Shown here one piece after another: positions 5,219 through 58,250 of a DNA stretch of 63,220 nucleotides. Made by a program: the position numbers and the translations under genes. The notes beneath the pieces were generated by a model. The model was not told where the DNA came from. It saw only the letters and a list, made by a program, of their open reading frames with translations, and did not search any database. The DNA comes from Chiloscyllium plagiosum (Eukaryota): positions 151,211,478 through 151,274,697 of the forward strand of contig NC_057710.1 of NCBI RefSeq assembly GCF_004010195.1, given 5' to 3'. Position 1 is the stretch's first letter; every line of letters begins with the position of its first letter.

Positions 5219-5490
5219 AAAGTTAAAAATCTCACAACACCAGGTTATAGTCCAACACATTTAATTGGAAGCACTAGCTTTCGGAGCGCTGCTCCTTCAT
5301 CAGGTAATTGTGGAGTACATAATTGTAAGACACAGAATTTATAGCCTTACAACTGTGTACTCCACAATCACCTGACAAAAGAGCAGCGCACCAAAAGCTA
5401 GTGTTTCCAATTGAACCTGTTGGACTATAACCTGGTGTGGTGTGATTTTTAACTTTGTACACCCCAGTCCAACACCGGCATCTCCAAATC
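5219..5490. mobile_element. Penelope-derived short element (family A) as an inverted dimer carrying hammerhead motifs
   Basis: 5219-5318 is the reverse complement of about 5356-5457 (cacaacaccaggttatagtccaaca / tgttggactataacctggtg). The same unit occurs at 6295-6382, 21827-22832 and 39282-39400. Confidence 0.75.
5272..5306 (-). ncRNA. Minimal type-I hammerhead ribozyme motif (family A), intact core
   Basis: Minus strand reads TAC-CTGATGA-A-GGAGC-AGC-GCTCC-GAA-AGCT-A-GTG: conserved boxes, 5-bp stem II, palindromic stem III, CUA cleavage triplet, 3-bp stem I. Confidence 0.75.
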
Positions 5491-6040
5491 AGGGTTAGGA
5501 AAATAAGTATTAACCAGGACCCATAGTTCTGATAACTGTCCTGTGGAAGTCAAGGCAGGACAAGGTCACACAGTCACTTAGAGCTACCACAGTAAGGCCC
5601 AGAGACCATGTCTGAGTGAGATATAGACAGACTGTAGGAGAGAATTTGATTCCCTGGGATTGGTGTGCAGGAGAAAGAGGTGATTTAAGGAAGGTTTATT
5701 TCAACTTGTGATGTTTTAGTTCAATTTATTAGTACAAGGTTTTATTAATAGTGTAATGTTTATTAGTATTGGTAAGCTTTTTATTAGCATTAACAGGATT
5801 ACCTTGTTAAAAAAATAAATAAAGGATTGGCTTGGCTTTTTCAGCTTTGAGAATGCCCATCCTGCAGTACATGGGAATTCTGGAGACGTTTCCTGTGTCC
5901 CGGATAAACATTGATGCGGGAAGTGAATCCATAATAGCAACTTGAGCTTCAATGTTCATAATTTGAACAGCTGTCGTCATCACTGCACTGTGTCTATTTC
6001 ATGAGAGCTACTGCGCAAGCATGTTTATAGGTGTGGTCAC

Positions 6041-6168
6041 TAGGAGAAAGTGAGGACTGCAGATGCTGGCGATTAGAGCTGAAAAATGTGTTGCTGGAAA
6101 AGCGCAGCAGGTCAGGCAGCATCCAAGGAGCAGGAGAATCGATGTTTCGGGCATAAGCCCTTCTTCAG
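6041..6168 (-). mobile_element. Penelope-derived short element (family B) with hammerhead motif at 6141-6168
   Basis: Minus strand CTGAAGA-A-GGGC-TTAT-GCCC-GAAACATC followed by gattctcctgctccttggatgctgcctgacctgctg; same tail as the Penelope copy at 15385-16022. Confidence 0.75.
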
Positions 6169-6294
6169 TCACTCGATAGCTGGACTGTATATGGGGTGAG
6201 AGGGAATGGGGTGATCATCGGGTAGTACAGTCCCATCAGTGCACCGTGCCAGTTAGACTGCAATCTTGCTTGCTTACTTTGATTATGATTTGGA

Positions 6295-6382
6295 CAACCA
6301 CCTGATGAAGGAGCAGCGCTCTGAAAGCCAACGCTTCCAAATAAACCTGTTGGACTATAACCTGGTGTTGTGTGATTTTTAC
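6295..6382 (+). mobile_element. Family A Penelope-derived fragment with hammerhead core (cleavage site mutated)
   Basis: CTGATGAAGGAGCAGCGCTCTGAAAGCCA at 6302-6330, then aataaacctgttggactataacctggtgttgtgtg. Confidence 0.7.
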
Positions 6383-6739
6383 CTTGATTAGTAACTCTAC
6401 CTTTCAGTTCTCTAGCCACATCCTTGTTTACGGACATTTTTTGACTTCCCTTTGTGATTGCTTGACAGCTTTAATTAAAAAACCTTTTGATGGTATCTAG
6501 GGCCCTTTCAATCTCTACCCAGGCCATTCCTCTCAGTGTCTCATTGATATTTAACAAATCATTCCATCATGGGCTGAATATAGAAGGGGAAGTGGTGTGA
6601 CGTAGTGGTGCTGTCACTAGATGAGTAATCCATACTTCTCACCCTGACAGATGGTGAAATTTGAATCCAATTAAAATACAAATACAAAGTTATATCTATA
6701 AAACCTTAACCATCAATTGGCATTAAGGCCCAATGATTG

Positions 6740-7060
6740 GGCAAGAGATGGCCTAGTGGTATGATCACTCGACCCTGGTAATATTCTGAGCACCTGGGTT
6801 TGAATCTTGCTATGACAAATCATCGAGTGTGAATTCAATAATTGTCTGGAATTAGGAGTCTAATGATGGCCGTGAAACCACTGCCGATTATCAGGAAAAG
6901 TCCATCTGGTTCACCAATGCCCCTTGAGGGCAGGAAATCTGCCATCTTACCTGGTCTGGCCTACATGTGACTGCAGATTCACAGCAATGTGGTTGACACT
7001 TAGCGCAGTTAGGGATGGGTAATAAATGCTGGCCTAGCCGATGACTCCTACAGCCCATGA
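6740..7060 (+). mobile_element. SacSINE1-like SINE copy
   Basis: Homologous to 2975-3335 (ggaaatctgccatcttacctggtctggcctacatgtgac; tail gggatgggtaataaatgctggcctagcc). Confidence 0.6.
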
Positions 7061-7141
7061 TTGATGCCTACATAATTTCCAATTAAAGCATTGCATATCA
7101 CACAAACCAAGCTATTTGACAACATTTACACATCATTAACG

Positions 7142-8184: not shown

Positions 8185-8350
8185 ATAAAAGCCGAAAGAA
8201 TTGCAGATGCTGGAAGTCATAAACAAAAAAACAAAATTAATATTTTGAGTTGGGTCTGTGGAAGGGTCACTTGACCCGGAAATGTTCACTCTGATTTCTC
8301 TCCACGGATGGTATCAGATTTGCTGAGCTTTTCCAGCAGTTTCTGTTTTT
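8185..8350. mobile_element. Older Penelope-derived short element with decayed hammerhead motif
   Basis: gcagatgctgg head, ctgtggaagggtcacttgacccggaaatgtt (GGGTC/GACCC stem), ttttccagca tail. Confidence 0.5.
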
Positions 8351-10645: not shown

Positions 10646-11379
10646 AATTAAGTAATTTACTTTCCAAATTAAAACCGGTATATTTCTGTGACATTGCTTC
10701 TAAATCTGTTTGATTATGCGCCCTTTGTGCTCTGTGGTAGGTGTTGAGAGCGACTAGAATAACAAAGGATGCTATCTCAGTCACATTGTGAGAACAGGAA
10801 CATGAATTGGTTTGAACTGAGGAATCTGTGACATGGGGTCAGGGGACAAAGTTCCATGCACACAGCAAAATCAGAATTTCCTAAACAAATTTCCTCCTCA
10901 CTTAACACAGCTGTGATATAAACAGAAGCTAATTAATTGAACAATTTTAAACTGTTCTTCAAATCACTAAGGTACATAGAAGAGCAGCAAACTGCTCAAT
11001 TTTAAGCATTAATGAGTTTTTAGTTGAACTATTAGTTTCACAATATCAATTTCAGTCATTAATAAATTGTATGAGCAAAGTTCTGTTTGTTTAAGCATCA
11101 CTTTAATTCTGATGATTTGGAGTTGTACAAAGGAAAATATTTTTAAATTTTACTGTCTTGCTTTATTGACATTATTTATTGTTGCCTTGTGGATAAATTG
11201 GAGAATTCTAAAATCTTTATTTTTAAATAACAAATGCTGGATAATAGGGCCTCATTTCTAGCATGCTACTCCAGTGAGGAATAACTGCAGAAACTGAGGA
11301 CTGGTTCATCGAGAATTTCACAGGCAGCGAGAAGTTGACAGATAGGACTATGAAGCCCAGTGAGGTAAAATAGGCAAAA

Positions 11380-11570
11380 CAAAACTGCTGGAGATATTCA
11401 GCAGGTCTGACAGCATCTGTGGAGAGAAAACAATGTTAACATTTTGAGTCTGTTTCTTCAGAAAGGTTACTGGATTTGAAACATTGACTCTGCAATCTCC
11501 CTACAGACGCTGCCAGACCTGCAGCTCTTTTATTGTTTCAGACTTAGGGCATCAGCAGTTCTTTGTTTTA
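11380..11570. mobile_element. Older Penelope-derived inverted short element
   Basis: gcaggtctgacagcatctgtggagaga pairs with tctccctacagacgctgccagacctgc; decayed gaaacatt core between them. Confidence 0.5.
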
Positions 11571-12177: not shown

Positions 12178-13257
12178 CTAGAGTTGTAGAGATGTACAGC
12201 ACGGAAACAAACCCTTTGGTCCAACCCGTCCATGCTGGCCAGATATCCCAACCCAATCTAGTCCCACCTGCCAGGACCCGGCCCATATCCCTCCAAATCC
12301 TTCCTGTTCATATATCCATCCAAATGCCTCTTAAATGTTGCAATTGTACCAGCCTCCACCACTTCCTCTGGCAGCTCATTCCATACACGTACCACCCTCT
12401 GCGTGAAGATATTACCCGAGAGGTCTCTTTTATATCTTGCTCCTCTCACCCTAAACCTATGTCCTCTAGTTCTGGACTCCCCCATCCCAGGGAAAAGACT
12501 TTGTCTATTTACCCTATCCATGATTTTATAAACCTCTATAAGGTCACCCCTCAGCCTCCGATGCTCCAGGGAAAACAGCCCCAGCCTGTTCAGTCTCTCC
12601 CTGCAGCTCAAATCCTCCAACCCTGGCAACATCCTTGTAAATCTTTTCTGAACCCTTTCAAGTTTCACAACATCAGAAACCAGAACACCACACAATATTC
12701 CAACAGTGGCCTAATTAATGCTCTGTACAGCCACAACATGACCTCCCAACTCCTGTACTCAGTACTCTGACCAATAAAGGAAAGCATACCAAACACCTTC
12801 TTCACTATCTTATCGACCTGCGACTTTACTTTCAAGGAACTATGAACCTGCACTCCAAGGTCTCTTTGTTCAGCAACACTCCCTCAGACCTTACATTAAG
12901 AGTTTAAGTCCTGCACTGATTTGCTTTTCCAAAATGCAGCACCTCACATTTATCTAAATTAAACTCCATCTGCCACTTCTCAGCCCATCTGATCAAGCTC
13001 CTGTTGTACTCTGAGGTAACCTTCTTCGCTGTCCACTACACCTCCAATTGTGTCAAATTTAATAACTATACCTCCTATGTTCACATCCAAATAATTTATG
13101 TAAATGACAAAAAATTGATCCAAAAATGGCACTGCACTGGTCACAGCCCTCCACCACCACCCTCTGTCTTCTACCTTTGAGCCAGTTCTGTTTCCAAATG
13201 GCTAGTTCTCCCTGTATTCCATGAGATCTAACCTTGCTAACCAGTCTCCCATGGGGA
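12178..13257 (-). mobile_element. CR1/HER1 LINE 3' ~1.1 kb, ending in a fold-back
   Basis: ORFs 12258-12695 and 12665-12853 with CR1 C-terminal motifs; collinear with 39690-40615. Confidence 0.9.
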
Positions 13258-13320
13258 ACTGGTTAGCAAGGTTAGATCTCATGGAATACAGGGAGAACTA
13301 GCCATTCAGATACAGAACTG
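13183..13320. repeat. Inverted repeat (~63-bp arms) at the LINE truncation point
   Basis: aatggctagttctccctgtattccatgagatctaaccttgctaaccagt is followed by its exact reverse complement after ctcccatgggga. Confidence 0.92.
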
Positions 13321-14343: not shown

Positions 14344-15384
14344 GTAAAAGGAAGGGCTACAAAAATGGAGGCAATGCAATGGAGATATTCATGAAACGAG
14401 CAGGATTTTAAATATGAGGCATTGGTTTTTGACCCACTAATGGAGATCAGGAAAGACAGTGTGCAGGATTTCCTGTGCAACTGAACACTGGCAATGGAGT
14501 TCAAAACAAGCTGATGTTTATGGAAGGTGGCCTGTGGCTTTGGGTTTCAGTTACAGATAGGACCTTAGACTGGGTTAGGTGTTGTCAACATTCCTGTGAA
14601 AGCTGCCTTCAGACCTTTAAATGATGTTGTGAGAGAAGAAGCTGTAGGTGAAGCAGAGGAGATGAAAGAGAACTTTTTTGGGAAACTATTAAGGTCCTAG
14701 TGTGTGGGGCATAAAACAAAACTGTTGATGTAAATGGTCTGACAATGATTTGATCAGAAAGGCTGGAAACAATGTAGGACTATTCCACTGAGCAGGACAA
14801 TTAAGACACATGATGTGATTAATTCTATCGAAGGCTGTGAAGAATTTGAGAAGAACAAGGTTTGTAATAATTAGTCACAAAGGACATAATGTGTGATTTT
14901 GATAATGGCCATTATCAATGCTGTAACAGAAGTCAGCACCTAATCAAATTGATTCAATTGGAGTGGTGGGGATCAATCAGAGAATTGAGGAGGAGACAAC
15001 ATGTTCAAGGACTTTGGTGTGGAAAGGTGAGACAGAGATCAGGAGGTAAATTGCAAGGATAGTATAGGGGAAGGATTTTCAGGATGGAGAGATGACATGA
15101 ATTTATGTAGTTAAAATAATAGTCTGTTAAGACATCAGCATTAGTCTGTCCATCATCTGACTTGCTGTCCAGAATATTTTCTTATTAATGGGAAGCAAGC
15201 GTAAGAATGTGTAAGAATAGTTTATTTTGTAAATTGTGTTTATTGACTGAGAAAATTCCTTAGATAGGTTTCTGTTCTTCAATGGCACATTGATTCATTA
15301 TGGAAGAAGGTACTTAACAGACAAGTAATTACAGAGTCAAATGTACCAGTGAAATGAGATTAACCATGAATTTTCAGATATTGT

Positions 15385-16022
15385 TCCTGGATTAGTGGTG
15401 CTGGAAGAGCACAGCAGTTCAGGCAGCATCCGAGGAGCAGTAAAATTGACGTTACGGGCAAAAGCCCTTCATCAGGAATAAAGGCAGAGAGCCTGAAGGG
15501 TGGAGAGATAAAGGGAAGTTGAAATGTTGGGCCACAGAGCAGTGTGGTTGATTGGTGCAGGTGTCCCAGAGATGTTCCCTAAAGAGCTCTGCTAGGAGGC
15601 GTCCAGTCTGCCCAATGTGTAGAGGAGACCGCATCGGGAGCAACGTATACAATAAATGATATTGGTGGATATGCAGGTAAAACTTTGATGATGTGGAAGG
15701 CTCCTTTAGGGCCTTGGATGGAGGTGAGGGAGGAGGTGTGGGCGCAGGTTTTGCAATTCCTGCGGTAGCAGGGGAAGATGCCAGGATGGGAGGGTGGGTT
15801 GGAAGGAGACGTGGACCTGACCAGGTAGTCACGGAGGGAACGGTCTTTGCGGAAAGCAGAAAGGGGTGGGGAGGGAAATATATCCCTGGTGGTGGGGTCT
15901 TTTTGGAGGTGGCAGAAATGTCGGCGGATGATTTGGTTTATGCAAAGGTTGGTAGGGTGGAAGGTGAGCACCAGGGGCGTTCTGTCCTTGTTACGGTTGG
16001 AGGGGTGGGGTCTAAGGGCGGT
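15385..16022 (-). mobile_element. Penelope-like retroelement 3' fragment: Cys-rich linker, GIY-YIG endonuclease (frameshifted) and hammerhead-bearing terminal repeat
   Basis: LTFHP..AFRKDRSLRDYLVRS..PCYRRNCKTC, then FTCISTNIIYCIRCSRCGLL and IGQTGRLLAELFREHL..VAQHFN across frames. Followed by CTGATGAAGGGCTTTTGCCCGTAACGTC at 15475-15448. Confidence 0.88.
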
Positions 16023-16319
16023 GACCCATTCTATGCTAATCAGTTAAGCCTGTAAAATAACTATATTAAAGTAGCACTATCATGACACTAAATTCCTCAT
16101 TGATAAATATTAAAAACACTCATGAAATGAAAATAGTATAGTTGGCAGTTACAATTTAATAAAGTGTATAAGTTTTCACTCATTGAAAATATCACAAAAA
16201 AGACAGGTGAAGAATATCATTAAGGTATTTTAGTTTATATATCCACAAATATCTCATGGCTTCTCTCTCATTTGTAATGCTTCACACTTTGTTGGACTCT
16301 GGGAAGAGAGTATCTAATC

Positions 16320-17764: not shown

Positions 17765-17945
17765 CAGTTAGTTCATTAATATCCTACAGGGAAGGAAATC
17801 TACCACCCTTACCTGGTCTGGCCTACATGTGACCCCAGTCCCACAATGTGATTAACTCTTAGCTGTTCTCTGGGCAATGGAGGATGGGTGATGAATGCTG
17901 GTCTAGCCAGCAACACCCATGTCCCACAACAGAATAAAGAAAGAT
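17765..17945 (+). mobile_element. SacSINE1-like SINE 3' half inside an older L2-like fragment
   Basis: gggaaggaaatctaccacccttacctggtctggcctacatgtgac...gggcaatggaggatgggtgatgaatgctgg. Confidence 0.55.
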
Positions 17946-19560: not shown

Positions 19561-21005
19561 CTGTAGGGAAAAGATGTGCAGAATTAGAAACAGAGTCTGA
19601 GATTTCTGCATTTGTGTCACTATTTTTAAAAATGAGCTGGCACTTCCCTTGGTGTCTTGGTTTTTCTGAACTTTATTAGTTCAACTCCATCAAGAATAGA
19701 AGGTGAAAATATTACAGTTATCCATTTAGCGTCCCTGAATCATCATGCTTAATAACTCTTCTATTGGTTTTCTTGCTGCGGTGTGATGCACAACTGGGGC
19801 CATAAGTGGTCTGCACTACTGAAAAAAACACTTGCAATACAATAGCCTTCGAACAGCACCTACAGTCATCAGTGACACAACCTCGATCTTGGCTGCTGCT
19901 TTTTATATTTTCTAAGAACAATACAGCACAAAAAAACTTGCAATTTGATTGTGTGTTGGCTCTTTGAAAGACCAGTTGAATCAGTTTCACTTCCAGCTCA
20001 GAGAATGGTTCATCACCTAGCTGAAAACCATCTTTTGTTAAGTTGAAAAATCCTACTTGACCTGGTAAGGGACAAAGTATCTGCCTGTCCCTTCGGAAAC
20101 CAGTCCTATCAAGTGTGGTGGGTATTGGGGATTTGCCAATAGTGGGAGTTCCAACTTCCTCTGCCTATAAGAAACATGGCACAAAATGGAAGCTTGCATG
20201 GTCTGGCAAATGAGATGTTCTCCAGAAGATGAGTCCAACTAGCCGTATGGCCAGCTGCCTGTATGTGAGAAATAAAAATTGAGAGAACTGCTGTTATATA
20301 CGGGAATGGGAGTAATGTGGCCAAGAAAACATGCAACACAAGAGCAAATAGGAATGGGAATTAAATGCTGGCCTTGCCAGGGACACCTACATCCCATCAT
20401 TGAATAGACAGTGGTTTCTGAGGGGCAAGTGGCAGAATACTAGCAACATTAGTTCGTGGGTGCCGAAATCACTCTACAAGCGATGAAGGAATTTGCTGGT
20501 CCCATCATAATTTGAGAGCCCCTTCATTGATCCCTTAAACTCTGACAGTGTCAGGGTGGAGGGACACTGAGAAATATAATTCAGGTCAATTTTCTGAGTC
20601 ATGGATTTTTGGCTAACTATTTCATTTTTCCCCAAATGCAAACACATTTTTCCCAAATGCAAACACATTTATAGATAATTAAAATGTTCAATTTTCACAA
20701 ATTTCCATTATAAATAGCTCTTACAAGGAGGGTGACCTACTCCTACTTTTCTTCCAATGTAACTCAATGGTGGCTCCTGGTGAGGTGTTGTATGGTAAAT
20801 TTGTGCCCTTAGGGGAAGCTGTGAGCTAAGAACAAAGCTCAGCATCTCAGCAAAAAAAGTAGTATAATTTTAAAATTGTTACCACACTGAAATAGCTGCC
20901 AGTTTCAGTTTTGTCAAGAAGCCTGATGTAATTCAATACCATGCCATTCCCTGCCATTCAATATGATGATGATATAGTTACTGCTGATGTTAATTGCTTT
21001 TTATT

Positions 21006-21322: not shown

Positions 21323-21826
21323 TATTTTTTTTACTATACCTCTGGAAGTGGTTCTCAGGACATTTGACATTTGAAATACTATTCCTAAACTATTGTGCAA
21401 ACTCTTCCTAGCTGAGAGGCTGGCTTGTCCATTTTTGGAGTGCAAACATGCACCAATTACAATCTACAAGATGACAGTTTGTGTCTAACAAATATCAAAC
21501 TAATAGGAACATTAAAATATAATTTCTAACTAAATTGTACTGCAAGTTGAGACTCAGAAAGCAGCAGGATATACATGACTATGGGGGCTCATACTATCAC
21601 AAACCACAGGAGAACATCACATAACTGACAATAACTTATCTCAGGAAGCACCGGCTCCAGAAACACAAAGAAACCCACTGTTTGTCAGGTTTTCTACGAC
21701 CATCAATGTAAGTCTACATTTGACTGACACCATGAGGTGTCTCATGACATCTGAACATACTCTGGTGCTCTATGAAACTCAACTCTCAATATTACCTATT
21801 TTATACTGATGTGGAGGTGCCGGTGT

Positions 21827-22832
21827 TGGACTTGAGTGGACAAAGTTAAAAACCGCACAACACCAGGTTATAGCCCAACAGGTTTATTTGGAAGTACTAG
21901 CTTTCAGCATGCTCCTCCTTCATCAGGTAGTTAGTGTGGCAGGATCATAGAACACAGAACCTAATAGCAATCTAGGTTTGTTCAATATATTGTATCAGTT
22001 GTATGACTGTGGTGTTTTGCTTTAAGTCTTTCATCTGTTAGAATGGGTTGCAGATTTTGATTCATTAATATGTAAATCCCAGAACTCCTTTCAAGTCATA
22101 TTCCCAAGATAACTTCAGGTTTTATCAAAAAAAAGCTTACATCTCAGCTCAGACAATGCAGTAAAGGTGTGAGGTTAGAGTCTGTCTGTATCCCAATCTT
22201 GAGTCAGACTGGTTCTATTTCCAAAGTAGGAATTTATAAAATATCACACAGATTGACTGCCTACAGATTGTGTGCTTTTTGAACAAAATAGAATTATCTT
22301 CAAATAAAATTCTGCAAATGCAATTTCACCCTATAGACTCATACATGTGTATGCGTACATTTGTGGAATTGTATTTGCAGACATATTCTATTTTGTTCAA
22401 GAAGCACACAATTGTGGGCAGTCAATCCATGTGACATTTTATAAATTTCTATTTTGGAAGTAGAACCAGTCTGACTCATGATCTGAATACAGACAGACTC
22501 TAACCTCGCACCTTCAATGCACTGTCGGAGCTGAGATGTCACCTTTTTTTTTTATATAACCTTAAGTTATCTCAGGAATGAGTTGAAAGCAGTTCTGGGA
22601 TTTACATATTAATGAATTGAAATCTGCAACCCACTCTAACAGATGAAAGACTTAACAGCAATCCAGGTTTGTTCAATATATCATTTCAATTGCTTGACAT
22701 TGTAATCTTTTGCTTTACATTCTGTGTTCTATGATCCTGCCCCACTAGCTACCTGATGAAGGAGCAGTGCTCTGAAAGCTAGTACTTCCAAATAAACCTG
22801 TTAGACTATAACCTGGTGTTGTGTGATTTTTA
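21827..22832. mobile_element. ~1-kb palindromic Penelope-derived element (family A inverted dimer) with hammerhead motifs near both ends
   Basis: About 21848-21960 mirrors 22720-22832 and about 22022-22320 mirrors 22358-22655. Flanks ctattttata / ctattttgta may be a degenerate TSD. Confidence 0.8.
22750..22784 (+). ncRNA. Minimal hammerhead ribozyme motif (family A)
   Basis: TAC-CTGATGA-A-GGAGC-AGT-GCTCT-GAA-AGCT-A-GTA; stem I TAC/GTA, stem II closed by G-U. Confidence 0.7.
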
Positions 22833-25688: not shown

Positions 25689-28011
25689 GTGGCCTAACCA
25701 AAGACTTATAAAGCTGCAACATGACATCCGGACTCTTGTACTCGATTCTTCGACTAATAAAGGTGAGTGTGCCATATGCCTTTCTTACCACCCTATCTAC
25801 TTGCACGGCCACTTTCAGGGAGCTATGGGCTTGAACCCCAAAATCCCTCTGTACATCAATGCTGTTCAGGGTCCTGCCATTAACTGTATGCTTTTTCTTA
25901 ACATTTGATCCCCTAAAGTACAGAACCTCACACTTACCTGGATTAAATGCCATCTGCCATTTCTCCACCCATACGTGCAACTGATCTATATTCAGCTGTA
26001 TCCTTTGACAACCTACACTATTTACAACTCCACAGATCTTTGTATCATCCGCAAACATACTAACCTACCCATCCACATTTTCATTCAAGTCACTTATATA
26101 TATCACAAACAGCAGAGGTCCCAGTATGGGTCCCTGTGGGACACCACTAGTCACAGACCTGCAGCCAGAAAAACATTCTTCCATCACTACGTTCTGCCTT
26201 CTACGAGCAAGTCAATTCTGAATCCATGTGGCCAAGTCATCGTGGATTCCAAGAATCTTAATTTTCTGGATGAGCCTACCATGAGGGACATTGTTGAAAA
26301 CCTTACTAAAAAACAATGTAGACAACATCCACTGCTCTACCCTCATCGATCACCTTTGTTACCTCCTCGGAAAATCCAATCAAGTTAGTAAGACATGATC
26401 TGCCCCACACAAAGTGATGCTGACTGTCTTTAACAATTCTCTCCAATAGCTTCCCAATTACCGATGCGAGACTCATCAGCCTATAGTTTCCTGGATTATC
26501 CTGATTTCCCTTCTTGAACAGAGGAACAACATTAGCTACTCATCAGTCATCCGGGACCTCTCCAGTGGCTAGCAAGGATACAAAGATCTTGGTTAAGGCC
26601 CCAGCAATTTCTTCTCTTGCCTCTCCCAATATCCTGGGGTAGATACCATTGGGGCCTGAAGTCTTCTACACCTTAATGCTTTTCAAAAGATCCAACACCA
26701 TTTCTTTCTTGAACTCAAAAGGCCATAGCATATTAGCGTGCTCCATATAAATCACGAGAACTGACGGCTCCCAGTTCCGGTAACATGTAGAGTGAGTATA
26801 AGCCAGACCCGTTGTAAGTATGAGACCTGGTTGTGGCGACGCTGCGGGGAATAAAATGCTCATATTCTAGCAGACTCGCCTCTTGGTCGTTTGTTCTGTG
26901 TCAGACTACTCTCCTACGAACCTGACCTTGAGAATTTTTTAAAACAGTGGCCTAACCAAAGACTTATAAAGCTGCAACATGACATCCGGACTCTTGTACT
27001 CGATTCTTCGACTAATAAAGGTGAGTGTGCCATATGCCTTTCTTACCACCCTATCTACTTGCACGGCCACTTTCAGGGAGCTATGGGCTTGAACCCCAAA
27101 ATCCCTCTGTACATCAATGCTGTTCAGGGTCCTGCCATTAACTGTATGCTTTTTCTTAACATTTGATCCCCTAAAGTACAGAACCTCACACTTACCTGGA
27201 TTAAATGCCATCTGCCATTTCTCCACCCATACGTGCAACTGATCTATATTCAGCTGTATCCTTTGACAACCTACACTATTTACAACTCCACAGATCTTTG
27301 TATCATCCGCAAACATACTAACCTACCCATCCACATTTTCATTCAAGTCACTTATATATATCACAAACAGCAGAGGTCCCAGTATGGGTCCCTGTGGGAC
27401 ACCACTAGTCACAGACCTGCAGCCAGAAAAACATTCTTCCATCACTACGTTCTGCCTTCTACGAGCAAGTCAATTCTGAATCCATGTGGCCAAGTCATCG
27501 TGGATTCCAAGAATCTTAATTTTCTGGATGAGCCTACCATGAGGGACATTGTTGAAAACCTTACTAAAAAACAATGTAGACAACATCCACTGCTCTACCC
27601 TCATCGATCACCTTTGTTACCTCCTCGGAAAATCCAATCAAGTTAGTAAGACATGATCTGCCCCACACAAAGCGATGCTGACTGTCTTTAACAATTCTCT
27701 CCAATAGCTTCCCAATTACCGATGCGAGACTCATCAGCCTATAGTTTCCTGGATTATCCTGATTTCCCTTCTTGAACAGAGGAACAACATTAGCTACTCA
27801 TCAGTCATCCGGGACCTCTCCAGTGGCTAGCAAGGATACAAAGATCTTGGTTAAGGCCCCAGCAATTTCTTCTCTTGCCTCTCCCAATATCCTGGGGTAG
27901 ATACCATTGGGGCCTGAAGTCTTCTACACCTTAATGCTTTTCAAAAGATCCAACACCATTTCTTTCTTGAACTCAAAAGGCCATAGCATATTAGCGTGCT
28001 CCATATAAATC
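25689..28011. repeat. Direct duplication of 1065 bp (25689-26753 and 26947-28011) with a 193-bp spacer
   Basis: Constant offset of 1258; ORFs 25975-26388 and 27233-27646 are identical. The only mismatch noticed is T26415 vs C27673. Confidence 0.95.
26754..26946 (+). mobile_element. Probable 3' end of a young LTR
   Basis: CpG-rich compared with flanks; TATAAG, then AATAAA near 26850, GT-rich tcttggtcgtttgttctgtg, terminal ...AACA. Confidence 0.55.
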
Positions 28012-33510: not shown

Positions 33511-33563
33511 GGCAGATGGCAGTTCACCCTGGGACAAGATCCCAGGGTGAACTGCCATCTGCC
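33511..33563. repeat. Perfect 24-bp-arm hairpin with 5-nt loop
   Basis: ggcagatggcagttcaccctggga-caaga-tcccagggtgaactgccatctgcc. Confidence 0.95.
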
Positions 33564-37660: not shown

Positions 37661-38004
37661 GAGACAGTTTGCATTTTTGAGACCACAACAGTCTTTGTCT
37701 CTTAGAGTCATATTGGACTCAAGACATTAACTCTGTTCCTCTCTCCATAGATGCTGCCAGACTTTCTTCCAACCATTTGTTTCAGATTTCCAGCATTGGC
37801 AGTATTTTACTTTTTTAATAACATTATTGTTAGACTTGGTAAACCATTATCAAGGTTTGATTTGATTCTGTGTACAATTATCAGAAATGTTATAATTGGG
37901 TTTGAGGAGTTTAGGTAATGAAAACTCCACTGCTGTAAGGGTGATTTACTCTCCTATTTATGTTTTCTAGATATGATATGATCTAGTATTCATTATTAAA
38001 CTAC

Positions 38005-39142
38005 AGACAGAATATCTGCTTTGTGACGTGTATATTTACCCCATTGCCAAATGTAGGCAGCTGTAATACTTTTCTTTGGATCTAAGTGCAATATATACTG
38101 TCCACAGGACTTGAATCTAATGAAATTGAGGATGCTCTGCGATAATATTGATATTGATTTCTAACTGTGCACTTGTGAATTCAGCATCAGTAGTTTTTCA
38201 GATTACGTTTTGTCCTGGAATTGTTTTGAGTTTGAAACACTATGGGCTCAATTTGTTCCCTGCCAGGAAGAAGATCCTGAAGCCCATTTTATAGGGATAA
38301 GGAAAGCAGGCAAGGCATGTGACAAGAGGACAACCTGCTGCTACTCATTGCTAACAGTTAAAATCTTTGTTCTCAACCGGGACATTCCTTGATTCTGTGT
38401 TCCTCGCAGACATTCATGCTTGCAGAATGCAGACTTGGCCAGAGAATTGGGAACCTATCGCCAACCTGCATTCCCCTAATGTACGACTTTTTCTGGAAAA
38501 TGTGGAACTTCTCTTACTAATGAGGTGTTTACAACAGTGAGAGCAAGGAGAAGGGGGAATTATCCAAATTTTCTCGCCTGGAGAAAAGTCTTACTTGCAG
38601 CCAGCCTATATTTTGGATGTTTGCTGCACATCATTTTCTGAGTATAAATTTGTTTTAAAAAATCACACTGTATCTAATGGTCTTATTAGATGAGGCCATC
38701 ATCAGTTACTCGGTCAGAAAGCTATCATAAATTCAATTTACTTCTAAACAATCATCAATCACAACACAAAGATAAATAAATGGAAATGATTGCTTATTCC
38801 TATAATCCTCTCCTGGTCTATTTTGCATTTGTTCTGTTGCTCCTCTTCTTTCTATAAACTTTCATCTTGTTCTCCTGCTTCTTGCTTAATCTGCTAGTTT
38901 TTCAACAGTTTGCAATCCTGATGAATCTTTTCTTCATGGTTTGCAGTCATTGATCTTCTGCATTCCACATATGGACAGAATATCTGCTTTGTGACATGTA
39001 CATTTACCCCATTGCCAAATGTAGGCAGCTGTAATTTCTTAGATCCAAAGAAAAGAAAATACAGCTGCCTACATTTGGCAATGGGGTAAATGTACATGTC
39101 ACAAAGCAGATATTCTGTCTTATGTGAAATGCAGAAGATCAA
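38005..39142. repeat. Triplicated 60-82 bp unit including a long hairpin at 38950-39142
   Basis: 38974-39033 is the exact reverse complement of 39060-39119; 38005-38086 is a near reverse complement of 39038-39120. Confidence 0.92.
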
Positions 39143-39281: not shown

Positions 39282-39400
39282 TGATTTGGAGGTGCTGGTG
39301 TTAGACTGGGGTGGACATAGTTAATTATCACACAACACTAGGTTATAGTTCAACAAGTTTATTTGGAGACACTAGCTTTCGAAGCGCTGCTTCTTCATCT
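39282..39400 (-). mobile_element. Family A Penelope-derived fragment, truncated within the hammerhead core
   Basis: tgatttggaggtgctggtgttagactgggg...cacaacactaggttatag...ctagctttcgaagcgctgcttcttcatc. Confidence 0.7.
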
Positions 39401-39689
39401 GTGCAGTGTGCTAATTTATAGTAGAAGCAGGAGTGTGGTATTGATCAAAACAGTAGAACTATATGCCTAATCATTCTTTATTGTTTGAACATTAAAATGC
39501 ATTATCAAGGTTCATTCTCAGTTCATCCACTGTTGTCTAGACCAGAGGAACATTTGATACACTTTATGTGTTTCAGAGTCCAGGATCCCATTTTTGAACG
39601 GATCTGCACGTTAGGGCTTTGGTTCCTGTTGTTACACCTACTGCACTTTCTCTGAGTGATCAAGGAGTTTCACTTCACTTTCCCCTGGA

Positions 39690-48796: not shown

Positions 48797-48910
48797 TAGG
48801 AGAAAGTGAGGACTGCAGATGCTGAAGTAGGGCTCATGCCCGAAACGTCGATTCTCCTGCTCCTTGGATGCTGCCTGACCTGCTGCGCTTTTCCAGCAAC
48901 ACATTTTCAG
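48797..48910 (+). mobile_element. Family B short element with hammerhead motif (48822-48849) and 15-bp TSD
   Basis: catcttcgaaagtac at 48782-48796 and 48911-48925; CTGAAGTA-GGGC-TCAT-GCCC-GAAACGTC. Confidence 0.85.
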
Positions 48911-51729: not shown

Positions 51730-51909
51730 AGCTGGAAATGTGTTGCTGGAAAAGCGCAGCAGGTCAGGCAGCATCCAGGGAACAGGAGAATCGACGTTTC
51801 GGGCATAAGCCCTTCTTCAGCATGCCTGGATGCTGCCTGACCTGCTGCGCTTTTCCAGCAACACATTTCCAGCTCTGATCTCCAGCATCTGCAGACCTCA
51901 CTTTCTCCT
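51730..51909. mobile_element. Family B short element as an inverted dimer with 14-bp TSD
   Basis: tagtgatggtacag at 51716-51729 and 51910-51923; arms agctggaaatgtgttgctggaaaagcgcagcaggtcaggcagcatccagg and its exact reverse complement. Confidence 0.88.
51793..51820 (-). ncRNA. Minimal hammerhead ribozyme core (family B), intact
   Basis: Minus strand CTGAAGA-A-GGGC-TTAT-GCCC-GAA-ACGT-C: both conserved boxes, 4-bp stem II, palindromic stem III, GUC triplet. Confidence 0.75.
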
Positions 51910-52410: not shown

Positions 52411-52541
52411 TTGTGCCAAGCAGGAGAAGAGCTTTCATGCACAGGAACTCCTCATAAGTCAACTGGAGGCGTACAAATTCTATGCTGATACTTTGCATCC
52501 CTTGACATAGCTCATACATAGCTGATTGTTGCATCCGCTGT
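52411..52541 (-). CDS. NR3C2: Mineralocorticoid receptor LBD exon (equivalent to human exon 7; helices 7-8), 131 bp
   Basis: Minus-strand acceptor tttgtttttaaacag, donor gtaagt. Translates [43 protein letters not shown]; phase-1 junction to the next exon gives I-PKDG. Confidence 0.92.
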
Positions 52542-55500
52542 CTGTTTAAAAACAAAATTAGATGTTGCTAATTAGACTGGAGTTTATCACACATGCTGGT
52601 TGACATTAAAATATATTCTATACACTCAAACTCACATTAATCCAAACTGACCAGATGTACTAAGAAACATTTAGAAGTAAAAACACATGAATGCTGAGTA
52701 AAAGCAGAACTACTGTGAAAGTTGGTTTTATCGTGAATTCAGATACATTTATGATTCTATGACTCTATAAATTTGAACATATTTTGCATTTTCTGGAGTC
52801 CACCTAATATACTTTCAAAATTACATTTATTGATACCCCTTTCTTAGTCTTTCCACAACAAATACCTTCAGTGGCAGACAAGATTGATGGAGGACTTGTT
52901 CTTCAAACTCTGTACCACTGGAATCTGCACAGGAATGAAACAGGCACAAACCCTGATCCTGAAAATCGTTGTAACATGCTGACTGGAATTTCAATGTATC
53001 ACTTTCTGAAAGCTTTTTTTAATTGCACCTTATGAAGGAATATGTTAATTTGTATTCCTATACATGTGAATATTGTGTAAATCAAAATTAGTTGTTCTCA
53101 ATGCCCTTGAAAGGTTTGATAAAAGGAAGAATTCATAATTAAATTCTAAATAGTGTCTTTTGGCTGATTAATCTAATCAACATATGCAAATTCAATTTAG
53201 GATAATCATTAAGTTGTTACCCCTTGTAATACGCAGATATCATTAATTAAATTAATAATTTTGTGTTTTGCATTTTTAAGTGAAATTATGAAATAGCCAA
53301 CAGCTCTCCAATCCGAACAGGAACTGAGGCAGATGTAGACACTGTTGGGAGTGCAGTCAGTATTCAATAAGAACTCATTGAGGTGGCTAGACTTGAAGGT
53401 AAGATGGACACACTCACCAGGGATATTCTTACAGGGTCCAGCAAACAGGGGATGGGGAAGGAAGTGTGGAAAAGGACCAGAACAGGGTAAGTCCATGTGG
53501 AGGTAGTCTGCTGTATTGAGAGAGAAGCCCTCCATGGACAATAGGTTGCTTGACAGGTCTGCAACCAAGTCGCCAAGGTACACCTGGCATCTTCACTATG
53601 TGACATGGGCAATATCAGCAATACCACTGGTGATGGGAGGTGGCTTTTAAATGACCACGGATCAGACAATAATTGCCTCAAATGGGTCAAGGGTAGGTCA
53701 CTTCCTGCCACCTATCACATGTTGGTAAAATAGCAGTAGTGATATGCAGGTAACTGGCATACTGCTGCTTGACATACCAGCTGATTTTGTGCTTCCCTCT
53801 CCAACCACGAATTTATAAGCCTGCTCCTGGGTGGAGAGTAAGCTTCTGGGTATGGGTCACTGATCAGCCAGAATCTCATTGGATGGTGGAACAGACCCCA
53901 GAGATCTAATGGACTATCCACATTTCTCTGTTTTTAGAATTTCATGGTAGGCCTCATTTTTACATCTGGTATACTTCACGTTCTTTATTGTTCTAGCTTC
54001 TTCATTGGTTTCTTCCATGTTCAGGATTTGGGAACTTATGGTCGAGGAGTCCCTGCTCTTCTTACCCCAGTTGATCCTAACAGGGGCAGAGGGAGGCTCC
54101 AGTATGTAAAACATTGCAAACTTTTGACCTTAGGCTGGCACAATGTAGTCCTAAGTCTTGCTTAATTTCTAGTCCTCCTGGCATATTGTAGTCTCAAACA
54201 CTGAGGATTTTCAGTCCTTTTATATCTATTACTGTAACAAATTTATCATTCAAATGTTGTAAGGCTAGGTGCAATGTTGGACAGGATTCTCCTGCAGGCT
54301 TTTGGAACACTGATGTTCAAACCAAATGTAGAGCAAGCTTGCTGGGAGCCCGACTGGAGTCGCCAGTTCTCTAGAGCAGCTACACAGTTTTCAACCTCCA
54401 TACTCTTCATCTACAGGCTATTCCCATTACAGGACAGACAACCCACTGAGAGGTAGGCACTGCTGAGATAGGTCCAATACCTCTAGGGTTCCTCAACATG
54501 CTGGCACCCACTGAAGTGTAAAAATAAATAATGATTTTCAATGGAAAATGCAAAAGACTCCCCAGAGGCAAAAAACCCCACCCTTCGGATTGTTTAGGCC
54601 TCATTCTACCCTTGATGCCTGTGAACTCTCTTTGGGAGAGCAAACCTAAGGCTCTGATGGCAGTTCAAATGACCGCAGGAGGGCCTCCTCCATTAGGTTG
54701 ACTGTTTCTGTATACATTAGGAAGCTGTTTCATCACAATGTCAATGAGTCCAGAAAATAATCTTAATTGGAACTCCTATTCTGTCAATCATCACCACATT
54801 CCTGCCCACCTGGAAAAACTTTCCTGGCAATGGACACACAACAGGGAGATGCCCCAGTACACCTACCCTATATTCCACCCCTCCCCCCAATCTCCAAGTT
54901 CGCTGGGTCCATTGACATTGTTTCACCCTCTTCACAGATGCTGCCTGACCTGCTGAGTCCTTCCAGCCCATATTCTGTTTTAATTGTAAGGGTGGTATTT
55001 TTGAAGGATCAATAACATTGTGAAAAAATATTTTTCTCCAACTTCACTTTATTTTCACAGAGTGCAACTGAGGTCAGTGACATATTATTAAATATGTTCT
55101 TATTATTTTTCACTCATTCAATTTTAGTCTGGATAAACAAGCACCTCATCACTCAAACATATACCCTAACTCTTAACAAATAAAGGAAAAATAAAATGAT
55201 TGATCGTTCTAGCCCATGTAACACACCGTGAGAAATCAGAAACACTGTATAAATACAGATAAACTCAACATTATGTAAATAACCAAGTTTTGGAACACTG
55301 CCAAAGTTAAGCAAATCTGAACCTTTTTTTCTTAAAGCAACATAGTAAACTGTCCAACAATTCAGTTATATGTTCTGAGAAATCTCATGCTGAGGATCCA
55401 AACTCTAAGGATGAAACAATATGTTGTAGATGGCTTCAGATCTGATGATGGACAATTAATGTTACAGTTCTTCACTGAGCAGGGCTAAACTTTTCCTCAT

Positions 55501-56249
55501 CAAATTTATGCTGTATCATTTAAAGTTTTACTTTGTATGGATCAGATGACCGCATTCTTTCACAGAACTGACATAAATATAGTTAGTGCCCTCACACCAC
55601 ATTGACTCTCCAATTACTTTGAAGTGCAGCAAGTGGTCATTATACATAGCTTTGCACACAGAGTGAATTGTAGAAAGAAAGCATTAACAGTTAATTTGCT
55701 CTGGTTTTTGAGTGAGGGGGCCAAAATTCATTATGTGCCCGCACCACCGGAATTGGACAGCAGGCAAAATTCATGCTTCCCTTTATATACTCTGATGTTA
55801 TATGTTCTGGAGCATGCCTGTCATTTCTGGGCAAATCTTTACATCCTATTTGAATGCTGATGTGCATTTACAATTATGTAGTCCTCTCACATCACTCCTA
55901 AGTCCAAGAAACTTTGGAAAATTATGAGTAGCATGTCTATAATTCCACTTTCTTCAATAGCCTTGGATGCATCTTATCCAGTCGAAGTGCCTAATCAACT
56001 TGAAGTACAGACAGTCTATTCAATACCTTTCAGCCACCTCTTCTTTCACATTAACTTGGGTAGCAATTTTCTTCTCTTGATAAAGGCAGATACAAAGTAT
56101 GAAATGACTCTGGTCATGTCTATTGCCTCCATGTGTAAATGTTTCTGTTTGTAGTCGCTCATTAGTTCCTTAGTGCATGCCCATTCATCTATAATTATTT
56201 TCTAATTGGGTTCTTCAATAGTTTTTAAAGAAGCCAATGCTTGTATTAA

Positions 56250-57320
56250 TAGACAATAGGTGTAGGAGTAGGCCATTCGGCCCTTTGAGCCAGCACCACC
56301 ATTCATTATGATCATGGCTGATCATCCACAATCAGTATTCTCTTCCTGCCATATCCCCATAACCCTTGATTCCACTATCTTTAAAAGCTCCATCCATCTC
56401 TTTCTTGAAAGTATCCAGAGACTTGGCTTCCACTGCCTTCTGAGGCAGAGCATTCCATATATCCACCACTCTCTGGGTGAAGACGTTTCTCCTCAACTCT
56501 GTTCTAAATGGCCTACTCCTTATTTTTAAACTGTGTCCTCTGGTTCTGGACTCACCCATCAGCGGAAACATGCTTCTCGTCTCCAGAGTTCCAATCTTTT
56601 AGTAATTTTATACTTCTCAATCAGATTCCCTCTCATCCTTCTAAATTCAAGTGTATACAAGCCCAGTGGCTCCAATCCTTCAACATATGATAGTCCTGCC
56701 ATTCTGGGAATTGACCTTGTGAACCTATGTTGCACTCCTCTTTGCTCCTATATGCAATTTCTCTTGTTATCAAGGCCAGCTTTAATAAAATTAGCTTTCT
56801 TCACTGCCTGCTGTACCTGCATGCTTGCTTTCATTGACTGATGTATAAGCACACCTCGATCTTGTTGTACTTCCCCTTTACCTAACTTGACTCCATTTAG
56901 ATAGTAATCTGCCTTCCTGTTCTTGCCAGCAAAGTGGATAACCACACATTTATCCACATTAAACTGCAGCTGCCATATGCATCCGTCCACTCACCAAGCC
57001 TGTCCAAGTCACCCTGTATTCTCATATCATCCTCCTCACATTTCACCCTGCCACCCAGCCTTGTGTCATCAGCAAATTTGCTAATATTACTTTTAATACC
57101 TTCATCTATATCAATAACGTATATTGTAAACAGCTGCGCTCCCAGCACCGAGCCTTGTGGTAGTCCACTGGTTACCACCTGCCGTTCTGAAAGAGACCTG
57201 TTTATCATTATTCTTTGCTTCCTGTCAGCCAGCCAATTTTCAATCCAAGTCAGTATTTTACCCCCAATACCATGTGCCCTAATTTTGCTCACTAATCTCC
57301 TAGGTGGGACTTTATCAAAG
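56250..57320 (-). mobile_element. CR1 LINE RT/3' fragment (different subfamily)
   Basis: AHGIGGKILTWIENWL..SGLPQGSVLG..SKFADDT and SRTRGHSLK motifs. Confidence 0.92.
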
Positions 57321-58154
57321 GTTTTCTTTTTAGCAGAGACATTGAAAAGAAAGTCAGCATGTATTTATCACTGGGACCATAGCCTTGGTGGACTGGGTGC
57401 AGACTCACTGCTAAATTGGCATATATTGTACCCATTACACTATATTCCAATTTCTATCCCTAAATGTTTCATAATATAGCCGAGGAACATAAGAGCACAA
57501 AGAAATGTCATTTTTAATAAAATTACCAAGTTAGCCTTTTCAGCACTTGTTCACCCACTGTACAATTCTAACTATATTACCGTGCAGTAATTTATTCGTC
57601 TTACTTGCCTTTCAGCTGGAAATTTACAACTCAATAGTATGGTATCATTAATAAAAGTGATGGATGATATTCATCACAGCACTGATGTGTCACACAGTGA
57701 AGTCAAGCATTCCATGAGGGATATTTGTGTGCATGTTAAACCAAGATACTGTTCATCACCACTGTTGATGTCACAATCAGAAGTCACCAATCCAGTTCAG
57801 AAACTCAATAAAATATCAGTGCATGATGAGAAGCTGTTGTATCTGTATCAAAAACTACAGAACTACCGTGAACAGAGGCAAAAAGAGAATCATCCAATAG
57901 ACTCTATGATGCCAAATTGTCAATGAGGCATGTAGTTATGAATGAGAAGTTGAAACAAGTTCACACTCATTAAGCTTTCCATGAACTGTGACACAAATTA
58001 GCAAGGAGATTACTGATCTAAGATTATAAGGGTTTGACTTTGGTTGCCTTTTTGAAAAAGTACAAAATATTTGTTGTTTCATCCTTGATGGGAAAAGCTC
58101 AATTAACTGGGGTAGTTGAACCTGAAGAGATGGAAGAACAGGGATATTTAAGCC

Positions 58155-58250
58155 TTCCTGATGATGGACTTTTGCCCGAAATGTTGATTTTCCTGCTTCT
58201 CGGATGCTGCCTGACCTGCTGTGCTTTTCCAGCACCACTCTAATCTTGAC
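58155..58250 (+). mobile_element. Family B short element with decayed hammerhead motif
   Basis: CTGATGATGGACTTTTGCCCGAAATGTT at 58158-58185, then ggatgctgcctgacctgctgtgcttttccagcacc. Confidence 0.75.

Follow-up and report, generated by a model that had tools for sequence, protein, structure and literature searches.

Minimal hammerhead ribozyme motifs in a shark genomic window as probable insertion remnants of Penelope-like retrotransposons

Short repeats carrying minimal hammerhead ribozyme motifs are dispersed through a 63,220-nt window (the whole stretch of Chiloscyllium plagiosum DNA analysed here), and they raise the question of whether they are chance likenesses, mobile units with masters of their own, elements serving the host or the debris of a larger retrotransposon. 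We propose that they are very probably insertion remnants of Penelope-like retrotransposons (PLEs), in which the hammerhead lies in the pseudo-LTR just upstream of two RT start sites. The finding is mostly ordinary, since it extends to shark families a known class, the minimal hammerheads of PLE pseudo-LTRs; two details go slightly beyond the 2014 description of that class, namely non-overlapping arms and, as a suggestive observation only, arm ends near the first catalytic base. Our literature search found no description of these shark families, and they may already be catalogued in Repbase, Dfam or subscription papers, which lay outside that search.

Hammerhead motifs in the two families

A preliminary description had named eleven hammerhead motifs, and 11/11 are present where it placed them, the minus-strand copies having been listed by their low coordinate. 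They amount to nine insertions (Table 1), because 5303/5372 and 21926/22753 each represent the two arms of a single insertion.

Table 1. Insertions of families A and B and older B-related insertions in the window; C3 is the first catalytic base of the hammerhead.
Insertion	Positions	Strand	C3	Features	Target duplication
A1	5221..5490	both	5303(-), 5372(+)	Two arms head-to-head; tail-less arm (-) with complete hammerhead, starting 45 nt upstream of C3; tail arm (+) with two core changes, starting 27 nt upstream of C3	Candidate 12 bp, 5210-5221/5491-5502, 10/12, borderline
A2	6286..6378	both	6302(+)	9-nt inverted tail arm 6286-6294 (-) joined to tail-less arm (+), which starts 7 nt upstream of C3	6274-6285/6379-6390, 11/12
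A3	21807..22829	both	21926(-), 22753(+)	Palindrome of 1 kb in which each arm begins ~410 nt upstream of C3; arm (-) with tail; arm (+) tail-less, complete motif	21792-21802/22830-22840, 10/11
A4	39282..39401	-	39401(-)	With tail; stem II with compensatory G-C to A-U; boundary ambiguous	None found
B1	6039..6168	-	6168(-)	With tail; similarity begins at C3; palindrome decayed	Candidate 6 bp, borderline
B2	15383..16037	-	15475(-)	5'-truncated PLE: coding remnant, then pseudo-LTR with hammerhead	
B2 coding remnant	16037-15509	-		RT thumb/linker, C-x4-C-x2-C zinc linker, broken GIY-YIG endonuclease	
B3	48797..48910	both	48822(+)	28-nt inverted tail arm (-) joined, with 3-nt overlap, to tail-less arm (+), which begins at C3	48782-48796/48911-48925, exact 15 bp
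B4	51730..51909	both	51820(-)	Arm (-) without tail, beginning 0-4 nt upstream of C3; arm (+) with tail	51716-51729/51910-51923, exact 14 bp
B5	58155..58247	+	58158(+)	Tail-less, decayed; similarity from about 3 nt upstream of C3	None significant
Older, two-arm	8186..8350	both	8256(+)	Decayed hammerhead, 5-bp stem II GGGTC/GACCC; inverted tail arm (-)	
Older, two-arm	11372..11570			Arms meet inside hammerhead region, about 11456-11462	
Older copy	3560..3640	+		Core decayed; stem II variant GAGTC/GACTC	
Older copy	37700..37815	+		With tail; core decayed; stem II variant GAGTC/GACTC	
Older fragment	54900..54986	+		No recognisable ribozyme core	

The heptamer CTGANGA alone is mildly enriched in the window (57 occurrences against 41 ± 6.9, with 2 of 100 shuffles reaching 57). 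A strict minimal-hammerhead descriptor gives 4 matches where 12/12 shuffles give 0; allowing one core mismatch raises the count to 10 against a shuffle mean of 0.75, and the loosest version finds 18 against 3.1, recovering 10 of the 11 named copies. The loose matches outside the families (2056, 11109, 37902, 40472, 46743 and 52455/52458) are no more numerous than chance predicts and were set aside; one of them, 52455, sits in a coding exon of a receptor gene. The descriptor is short, one loose match falls on that exon, and Rfam finds nothing: at gathering score there is no match for these copies and, up to E=10, no hammerhead family appears among 20 matches, the top ones being miRNA models that match palindromes. 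Nonetheless, a mere chance likeness of degenerate repeats to a short, permissive motif is hardly credible in view of the strict matches missing from every shuffle, the location of the motif where it is expected in a PLE pseudo-LTR, and pairing that is kept despite differing stem sequences.

The consensus proposed at first is idealised: 6 of the 11 copies have all 12 core positions, and only 2/11 (5303 and 22753) are structurally complete, with stem II, palindrome and a stem I of 3 bp all retained as well. The components of a minimal type-I hammerhead were found (CUGANGA, GAAA and UH core, stem II, palindromic stem III), and stem II is present in the minimum-energy fold of 8/8 segments. An anchored table of the copies also contains the hallmarks given in the available text of Cervera & de la Pena 2014 (PMC4209133): an extra base between A9 and 10.1, a G10.1-C11.1 pair and a palindromic 15.2-16.2. 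The initial identification of minimal type-I hammerhead motifs of Penelope-like origin is supported. The covariation claimed between A and B was overstated: outside the ribozyme the families are unalignable (local score 14 against a shuffled mean of 13.5), and they therefore represent a common fold in two lineages. Compensatory changes were seen by inspection, and only within A, at one pair (39401), and among the older B-related copies, as a G-C/A-U switch; a formal pair count on the gap-free A+B alignment, which mis-registers stems of unequal length, was matched by 34-116 of 500 shuffles.

The text of PMC4209133 available to us describes minimal hammerheads, occurring solo or as opposite-strand pairs 100-700 bp apart, as truncated PLEs, among them fish Neptune, Poseidon and Xena. 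These metazoan pseudo-LTR hammerheads resemble A and B in their core boxes, short stem I (about 3 bp in A and B) and mostly solo copies, whereas stem II measures 7-8 bp in Schistosoma and 4-5 bp in A and B. The same text, in which we found no mention of sharks, counts ~4,000 copies per genome in coelacanth and ~9,000 in Xenopus with a different descriptor, against a high local density of 63 strict matches per Mb here (4 in 63 kb; 95% interval 17-162). The repeats had been called as common as SINEs, which is borne out by count in the window, with nine A/B insertions against six tRNA-headed copies of the SINE profile; the other 6 of its 12 matches cover only its LINE-like 3' end.

Coding remnant and parents of the two families

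The B2 insertion combines the family B repeat with PLE coding sequence. The ORF at 16043-15582(-) is 85-86% identical to RT-endonuclease proteins of Chiloscyllium punctatum (best E=1.9e-57), which carry RVT_1 and, in P0001, a GIY-YIG match of 21.7 bits, just under the curated cut-off of 22.6. By tblastn, RT-linker and endonuclease pieces extend over 16037-15512 and end 37 nt before C3 at 15475; the RT core has been truncated away, and the endonuclease is frameshifted near 15690 and 15620 and has lost about its last 50 codons at ~15509. The B2 hammerhead has one core change, and the insertion ends at the tail-less end, its repeat copy covering 15383-15478. Pfam gave no family for either of the two PLE fragments of the window (0 for 2/2), and the identification came from homologues. 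Since the B repeat is contiguous with an RT-linker/GIY-YIG remnant, with the ORF upstream of the pseudo-LTR as in EN+ PLEs, B is the pseudo-LTR of an autonomous-type element. This remnant (15509-16037) and the five older B-related insertions were missing from the preliminary description. At 54740-54900, what seemed to be an old coding remnant was discounted, as 62 of 300 shuffles score equally high. Prokaryotic genome contigs scanned for contaminating copies gave none by DNA pattern, and none was confirmed among 92 protein-pattern matches.

Among 156 related proteins, 94 have the pattern GIY-x-C-x2-C-x-YIG, and 91 of these 94 have an upstream C-x2-5-C-x2-C linker; the window ORF carries C-x4-C-x2-C, and DKG is found in the relatives P0002 and P0006. 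Family B is thus assigned as the pseudo-LTR of a putative Neptune-type PLE, the clade being read from motifs and not from a tree with named references. Nematis, which shares the linker and DKG, is known only from other animals. According to the available text of Craig 2021 (PMC8557442), the C-x2-5-C-x2-C linker precedes a GIY-x-C-x2-C-x-YIG endonuclease in Neptune/Nematis. Neptune-clade EN+ PLEs described there are like the window sequences in their C-terminal GIY-YIG (two cysteines separating the GIY from the YIG), their linker, DKG (here in P0002), 5' truncation, inverted 5' copy and 30-40 bp tail at one end. They differ by a (TA)n target bias and by partial-tandem and full-length copies; the flanks examined here show no such bias, and no full-length or partial-tandem pLTR-ORF-pLTR copy occurs in the window.

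We infer from its architecture only that family A belongs to the PLE class. No parent ORF was found for it by six-frame translation over the 410 nt available upstream, with a profile of 6 proteins, or with 156 proteins and an endonuclease profile; a match from this last search at 58597-58713 (E=0.037) was rejected as a 5-residue resemblance, and a protein search using an antisense frame, limited to longer proteins, was empty. The upstream region of A3, an insertion inside the last intron of the receptor gene, is non-coding. Family A copies may perhaps be truncated within a long 3' UTR.

Both families had been described as short and non-autonomous, a view not supported in the light of the B2 remnant and of family A arms, which extend for 410 nt or more on the upstream side of the ribozyme, so that A is not a short unit. 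Still, the repeats might derive from short ribozyme elements, similar to solo retrozymes or SINEs, having their own masters and moved in trans by PLE proteins. This origin is unlikely; family A and the young B copies 6168, 48822 and 51820 are the cases in which it is most tenable. In 3/3 young B1-type insertions the ribozyme-containing arm begins 0-4 nt from C3, no coding sequence is present over the 410 nt upstream in family A, and, in the portions available of the two sources, PLE proteins are able to act in trans on pLTR-bounded sequence (PMC3846280) and retrozymes are interpreted as non-autonomous derivatives of PLEs (bioRxiv 10.64898/2026.07.22.740005). However, a PLE ORF adjoins the repeat in a sister B subfamily, family A 5' ends are spread from 7 to 413 nt upstream of C3, and a unit beginning at C3 could not fold a hammerhead alone because the 5' strand of stem I is missing. 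There are no tandem arrays, and the same boundary is found in unrelated and older families, for which a shared mechanism is simpler than several masters. A SINE-like family would have fixed ends, non-coding sequence and its own masters: B2 is coding and A has variable 5' ends, while the three young B arms starting at C3 are compatible. Coding sequence is present in only 1/5 family B insertions, B2, whose subfamily is 85% identical to the three youngest copies, so that these three may have had a non-autonomous master.

Animal non-LTR retrozymes, in the available text of Cervera 2020 (PMC7229834) and of the preprint of Li et al. (bioRxiv 10.64898/2026.07.22.740005), share with A and B a type-I hammerhead, PLE pseudo-LTR ancestry and dispersed monomers, and they were present in one chondrichthyan that was sampled. 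Retrozymes are, however, head-to-tail tandem repeats with a ribozyme per unit, whereas no A/B copy is tandem: Tandem Repeats Finder gave two arrays in the window, neither at these copies, self-BLAST of the window gave only inverted or distant pairs, and no copy in the window begins at the predicted cut site.

Fate of the dispersed ribozymes

The repeats had also been presented as a system of ribozymes, which does not agree with the lack of tandem copies or with a core that has no extra conservation: non-CpG mismatches among copies number 4/108 in the core and 42/611 at other positions (Fisher p=0.29). The copies decay neutrally. A role as functional host elements, for instance in cleaving the corticoid-receptor pre-mRNA or read-through transcripts, is very improbable. 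Three copies (21926, 39401, 51820) lie in receptor introns in sense orientation, and two copies keep all secondary-structure elements; but the three intronic ones are all defective, with a disrupted stem II, a changed core or a missing stem I, and the complete ones, 5303 and 22753, are arms of palindromes. The A1 transcript is predicted to form, from either strand, a long hairpin (-150 and -176 kcal/mol) that buries the motif. Moreover, the core is conserved no better than its flanks, and the sole same-family, same-strand neighbours (5372 and 6302, 930 bp apart) both carry core changes. As weaker evidence, the modelled active dimer would lie 7-32 kcal/mol above the cofold minimum in 9/9 arms, in a model that ignores tertiary contacts and protein; dimer cleavage has reportedly been studied by Lunse et al. 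On the PLE reading, the ribozyme would be selected only in active parent lineages, where, by analogy with published systems, it is probably a weak, protein-assisted or dimer-dependent cleaver; dispersed copies would be dead on arrival and then decay.

Two-armed insertions, priming and RNA ends

Two head-to-head arms with their 3' ends outward make up 7 of the 14 related insertions (nine A/B and five older B-related). One arm ends at the "tail" and the other stops 35-45 nt short of it, the tail measuring 36-43 nt in the A/B insertions. Two-armed architecture is seen in 3/4 A and 2/5 B insertions, which combine 5' truncation, an inverted 5' copy and a one-sided tail. At A4, similarity fades at the first catalytic box. 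Target duplications of variable length were compared with 400 random pairs for 13 of the 14 insertions, the 54.9 kb fragment being left out: four are significant (15/15, 14/14, 11/12 and 10/11; random-pair fraction 0-0.01), three are borderline (random-pair fraction 0.075) and six insertions have no detectable duplication. The best-preserved insertions are flanked by duplications of 11-15 bp, those of family A by 11-12 bp.

In two insertions, A2 and B3, the arms derive from different, non-overlapping stretches of the element; on the reference copy, B3 spans positions 100-128 with its tail arm and 0-90 with the other. The arms of B4 are identical over 50/50 nt, which indicates a young insertion, and its inverted arm contains 43 nt missing from the partner arm; the tail arm has no ribozyme, and the hammerhead at 51820 has an intact core, stem II and palindrome. 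Arms that do not overlap speak for priming on both strands of the target over fold-back. We therefore favour fold-back less for the inverted pairs, and consider it improbable that they arose by self-priming, with the first cDNA or an antisense template being copied as a hairpin, as Arkhipova 2013 proposed for PLE head-to-head repeats (PMC3846280, available text). The near-symmetric arms of A1 and A3 (109 and 460 aligned nt at 87%) would suit such a process; in contrast, a simple fold-back cannot copy sequence missing from the first arm, barring later deletion, and this opposes it for B3, for B4 and for A2 with its 9-nt tail arm.

With two-strand priming, the endonuclease would nick both target strands 11-15 nt apart; primed by each nick, uncleaved element RNA would be reverse-transcribed from one of the two start sites, and synthesis would mostly stop early, the two cDNAs joining in the middle. 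This model is drawn from seven junctions, of which two are old and ambiguous. The ribozyme is no more than about 130 nt away from the start sites, so that most copies, being truncated, contain little beyond it and resemble ribozyme-bearing SINEs. In L1 twin priming, a second primer, provided by the other strand of the target, gives rise to a 5' inversion, and the insertion is flanked by a target duplication; in the insertions here, by contrast, the second arm begins at a set position of the element and can overlap the first in sequence. For the Anolis Poseidon element PAc, the available text of Frangieh 2024 (PMC11167929) reports that both strands are cleaved and extended, that unprocessed RNA is the main template and that two internal RT starts define the tail. 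PAc is like A and B in that two RT start sites bracket a tail downstream of the hammerhead, and in both cases inserted copies span the cleavage site, as expected if uncleaved RNA is the template. It belongs to another clade, and the start of its ORF falls within the ribozyme, whereas six-frame translation showed no open frame running through the A ribozyme. PLE integration and the role of PLE hammerheads are open questions in the available texts of Craig 2021 (PMC8557442) and Frangieh 2024 (PMC11167929), and an insertion every few kb would offer thousands of young, duplication-flanked junctions for the computational study of priming and of 5'-end pile-up at the ribozyme.

Finally, one arm ends within about 10 nt of C3 in 5 of the 7 two-arm insertions, two of these five being old and ambiguous. 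The simulated p is 0-0.002 for that fixed interval and 0.004-0.11 when any interval is allowed, and the clustering is suggestive only. It backs a further reading, which we hold to be possible but rather doubtful, that shark PLE output is mostly ribozyme-sized cDNA by design: a dimeric RT-endonuclease with two fixed starts would prime on both strands of the target, copy one arm from the 5' pseudo-LTR and run off the RNA end at C3. If so, an RNA with this end would lack stem I's 5' strand, so that the 5' ribozyme would be disarmed, PLE head-to-head inversions would be explained without fold-back, and the transcript 5' end would be mapped from genomic fossils alone. Extrapolated from this one window, hammerhead relics would be of the order of 10^5 per shark genome, and shark genomes measure 3-4 Gb. 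In Penelope of D. virilis, transcription starts 46 bp ahead of an intron of 75 bp (PMC2377424, available text), and the end of that intron adjoins helix I; this start is unlike one at the ribozyme and therefore counts against the simplest version of the RNA-end reading. Candidate RNA ends at C3 are a transcription start, a splice junction and a protein-protected edge.

Relation of families A and B to Penelope-like elements

The preliminary description had claimed two dispersed families of hammerhead repeats, A and B, and all 11 motifs (9 insertions, A1-A4 and B1-B5) were indeed found in the window. The hammerhead descriptor search that it had proposed, run on the window, gave four hits at the strict setting vs none in 12/12 dinucleotide shuffles, and the loosest setting recovered 10 of the 11 named copies, with about three hits expected by chance; an Rfam search of the window detected no hammerhead.

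The pseudo-LTR part of B2 (15383-15478) runs upstream into a reading frame with 85-86% identity to C. punctatum proteins combining reverse transcriptase (RT) and GIY-YIG domains, and the closest named relatives of this retrotransposon protein come from Chiloscyllium punctatum in four of six hits, which makes a bamboo-shark-like genome the likely source. The tblastn matches lie in three frames across 16037-15512, immediately before the ribozyme, and comprise the terminal part of the RT thumb, a linker of the form C-x4-C-x2-C and an endonuclease remnant lacking about its last 50 codons. Among 156 related proteins, 94 fit a GIY-YIG endonuclease pattern containing a pair of cysteines between the two motifs, and 91 of these 94 also carry the linker. 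Judged by the motif definitions for Neptune/Nematis endonuclease-encoding (EN+) Penelope-like elements (PLEs) in the accessible text of Craig 2021 (PMC8557442), the putative parent of family B is an element of this type, and we infer Neptune. Because the B2 hammerhead is contiguous with the RT/GIY-YIG remnant, family B is, on sequence grounds, the hammerhead-bearing 3' pseudo-LTR of a protein-coding EN+ PLE. The earlier interpretation is half right: the PLE origin of the hammerhead holds for family B, while the non-autonomy of these units is unproven.

Families A and B could not be aligned outside the ribozyme, and translation, profile and protein searches found no ORF linked to family A. Having the same build as family B, family A would work like a hammerhead-bearing pseudo-LTR of an EN+ PLE. 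No description of these shark families was found in the papers and preprints searched; the accessible part of one preprint (bioRxiv 10.64898/2026.07.22.740005) has one chondrichthyan sampled for tandem retrozymes.

A profile search added five older B-related insertions, giving 14 A/B-type insertions in the 63 kb, the nine named ones occupying 2,676 bp. The older families (3560, 8256, 11456, 37700) have other stem II sequences (GGGTC/GACCC and GAGTC/GACTC) and what looks like a U at the cleavage site, differences that suggest several successive PLE waves. We also noted splice-acceptor-like stretches, one pyrimidine-rich and CAG-ending within the family A tail region (~5470, plus strand), the other a pyrimidine run and TAG ending the family B tail (~6038, minus strand). 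A 5' UTR intron is frequent in PLEs.

Insertion anatomy and proposed two-sided priming

Two head-to-head arms with their 3' ends outward make up 7 of the 14 insertions. Downstream of C3, the first catalytic base, the arm with the tail (an extra stretch at one end only) ends at 118-129 nt and the other at 76-92 nt. A2 is only seemingly solo: between its duplication and long arm lies a tail arm of 9 nt that reproduces the end of the family A tail exactly, a 9-mer found five times in the window. Against a random-pair null, target duplications were above expectation in four of the 13 insertions tested, borderline in three and absent in six. This anatomy matches published PLEs, in which a 5'-truncated copy is inverted and a tail of 30-40 bp occurs on one side (Craig 2021, PMC8557442; Arkhipova 2013, PMC3846280), and truncated PLEs have been described as the source of minimal hammerheads that are solo or on opposite strands (Cervera & de la Pena 2014, PMC4209133), as far as the accessible text of these papers goes. 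In the left arm of the 1-kb A3 palindrome, a 66-bp segment (21959-22024) is inverted relative to the remainder; it matches the right arm (22650-22717) in direct orientation at 79% and has short inverted repeats at its borders.

Arms tend to stop at the 5' edge of the ribozyme. Relative to C3 (minus, upstream), they start at 0 in B3, 0 to -4 in B4 and -7 in A2, and both old two-arm pairs have junctions within about 10 nt of C3, with ambiguous placement; the exceptions are A1 (-27, -45) and A3 (-409, -413). Counting the two ambiguous old junctions, five of seven two-arm insertions fall in a 20-nt window at C3 (six null models for the arm lengths gave p 0-0.002, or p 0.004-0.11 with any window allowed). 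Solo copies were excluded since cross-family similarity stops at the core anyway. One candidate explanation is that the RNA has its 5' end there, but the simplest version of this is not supported by D. virilis Penelope, whose unspliced RNA starts >120 nt upstream of helix I in the accessible text of PMC2377424 and PMC4209133. Junction microhomology and a short non-autonomous master are the other candidates.

All arms that carry the ribozyme run across the predicted cut; none begins there. This fits the Anolis PLE of Frangieh 2024 (PMC11167929), in whose accessible text the main template is uncleaved RNA, the ribozyme requires the protein, both target strands are cleaved and extended, and the tail is bracketed by two internal RT starts. 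In reference-copy positions, the B3 arms cover 100-128 and 0-90 and the B4 arms 43-127 and 0-92; the inverted arm therefore has sequence absent from its partner, and simple fold-back, which would also place arms head-to-head, cannot account for these two insertions. Two priming events would yield head-to-head arms covering different parts of the element. A term search of PMC11167929 and a wider literature search turned up no passage that ties two-strand priming to head-to-head copies.

Decay of the ribozymes

With each copy anchored on its boxes, all 12 core positions are retained in 6 of 11 copies; two of these six also have an intact palindrome, stem II and a stem I of 3 bp. Non-CpG mismatches vs the family majority number 4/108 in the core, 8/83 in stem II and 42/611 elsewhere; in the same between-copy comparison CpG sites are mismatched more often (12/64). 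No extra conservation of the core was detectable among copies (core vs other, p=0.29) in this test of little power, for which copies were picked by motif, a bias that should favour the core. Predicted folds contain stem II in 8/8 segments and a complete three-way junction in none of the eight, the modelled active dimer lies 7-32 kcal/mol above the cofold minimum for 9/9 arms, and the A1 palindrome is predicted to form a long hairpin on either strand. No tandem arrangement of A/B copies was found in the window; in this they differ from retrozymes, and a retrozyme assignment failed. From the dimer energies, the A1 hairpin, the missing three-way junction and the lack of tandem copies, the genomic copies are best read as inactive relics, as far as the models indicate.

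Genomic setting and other repeats

The DNA of the window is vertebrate and AT-rich and has a single 21-base gap. On its minus strand are the three 3'-most coding exons of a corticoid receptor gene, whose nearest matches are ancestral corticoid and mineralocorticoid receptors; among extant receptors, the mineralocorticoid receptor scores highest. Five of the nine named A/B insertions lie in introns of this gene or further 5' inside the gene span, and four past its stop codon.

Positions of insertions, exons and other repeats in the window
Feature	Position	Strand	Remark
A1	5221-5490		
A2	6286-6378		
A3	21807-22829		
A4	39282-39401		
B1	6039-6168		
B2	15383-16037		
B3	48797-48910		
B4	51730-51909		
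B5	58155-58247		
Older B-related insertions	3560, 8186, 11372, 37700, 54900		profile search
Corticoid receptor exon	ends at 52412	minus	recognised by eye only
Corticoid receptor exon	35708-35551	minus	sequence comparison with receptors
Corticoid receptor last exon	19560-19405	minus	sequence comparison with receptors
tRNA-headed SINE, six copies	7569, 21004, 42372, 43717, 44377, 45278		
LINE 3' ends	9316, 12179, 13842, 30934, 39691		
LINE duplication	25689-26753, 26947-28011		direct
Other palindromes	13183-13320, 33511-33563, 38950-39142		91-93%, near-perfect
Further dispersed repeat family	3028-3337, 6771-7064, 17771-17945, 20341-20403		75-79% identity

The 3' end of the tRNA-headed SINE matches the 3' ends of an abundant CR1-like LINE; we take these families to be HE1/HER1. 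A direct duplication of 1,065 bp (99.9% identity) in LINE reverse-transcriptase sequence is either a very recent tandem duplication or an assembly artefact. The three other palindromes, without a match to the A/B profiles, are possibly MITE-like or inverted LINE junctions, and part of the one at 38950-39142 recurs at 38005-38086.
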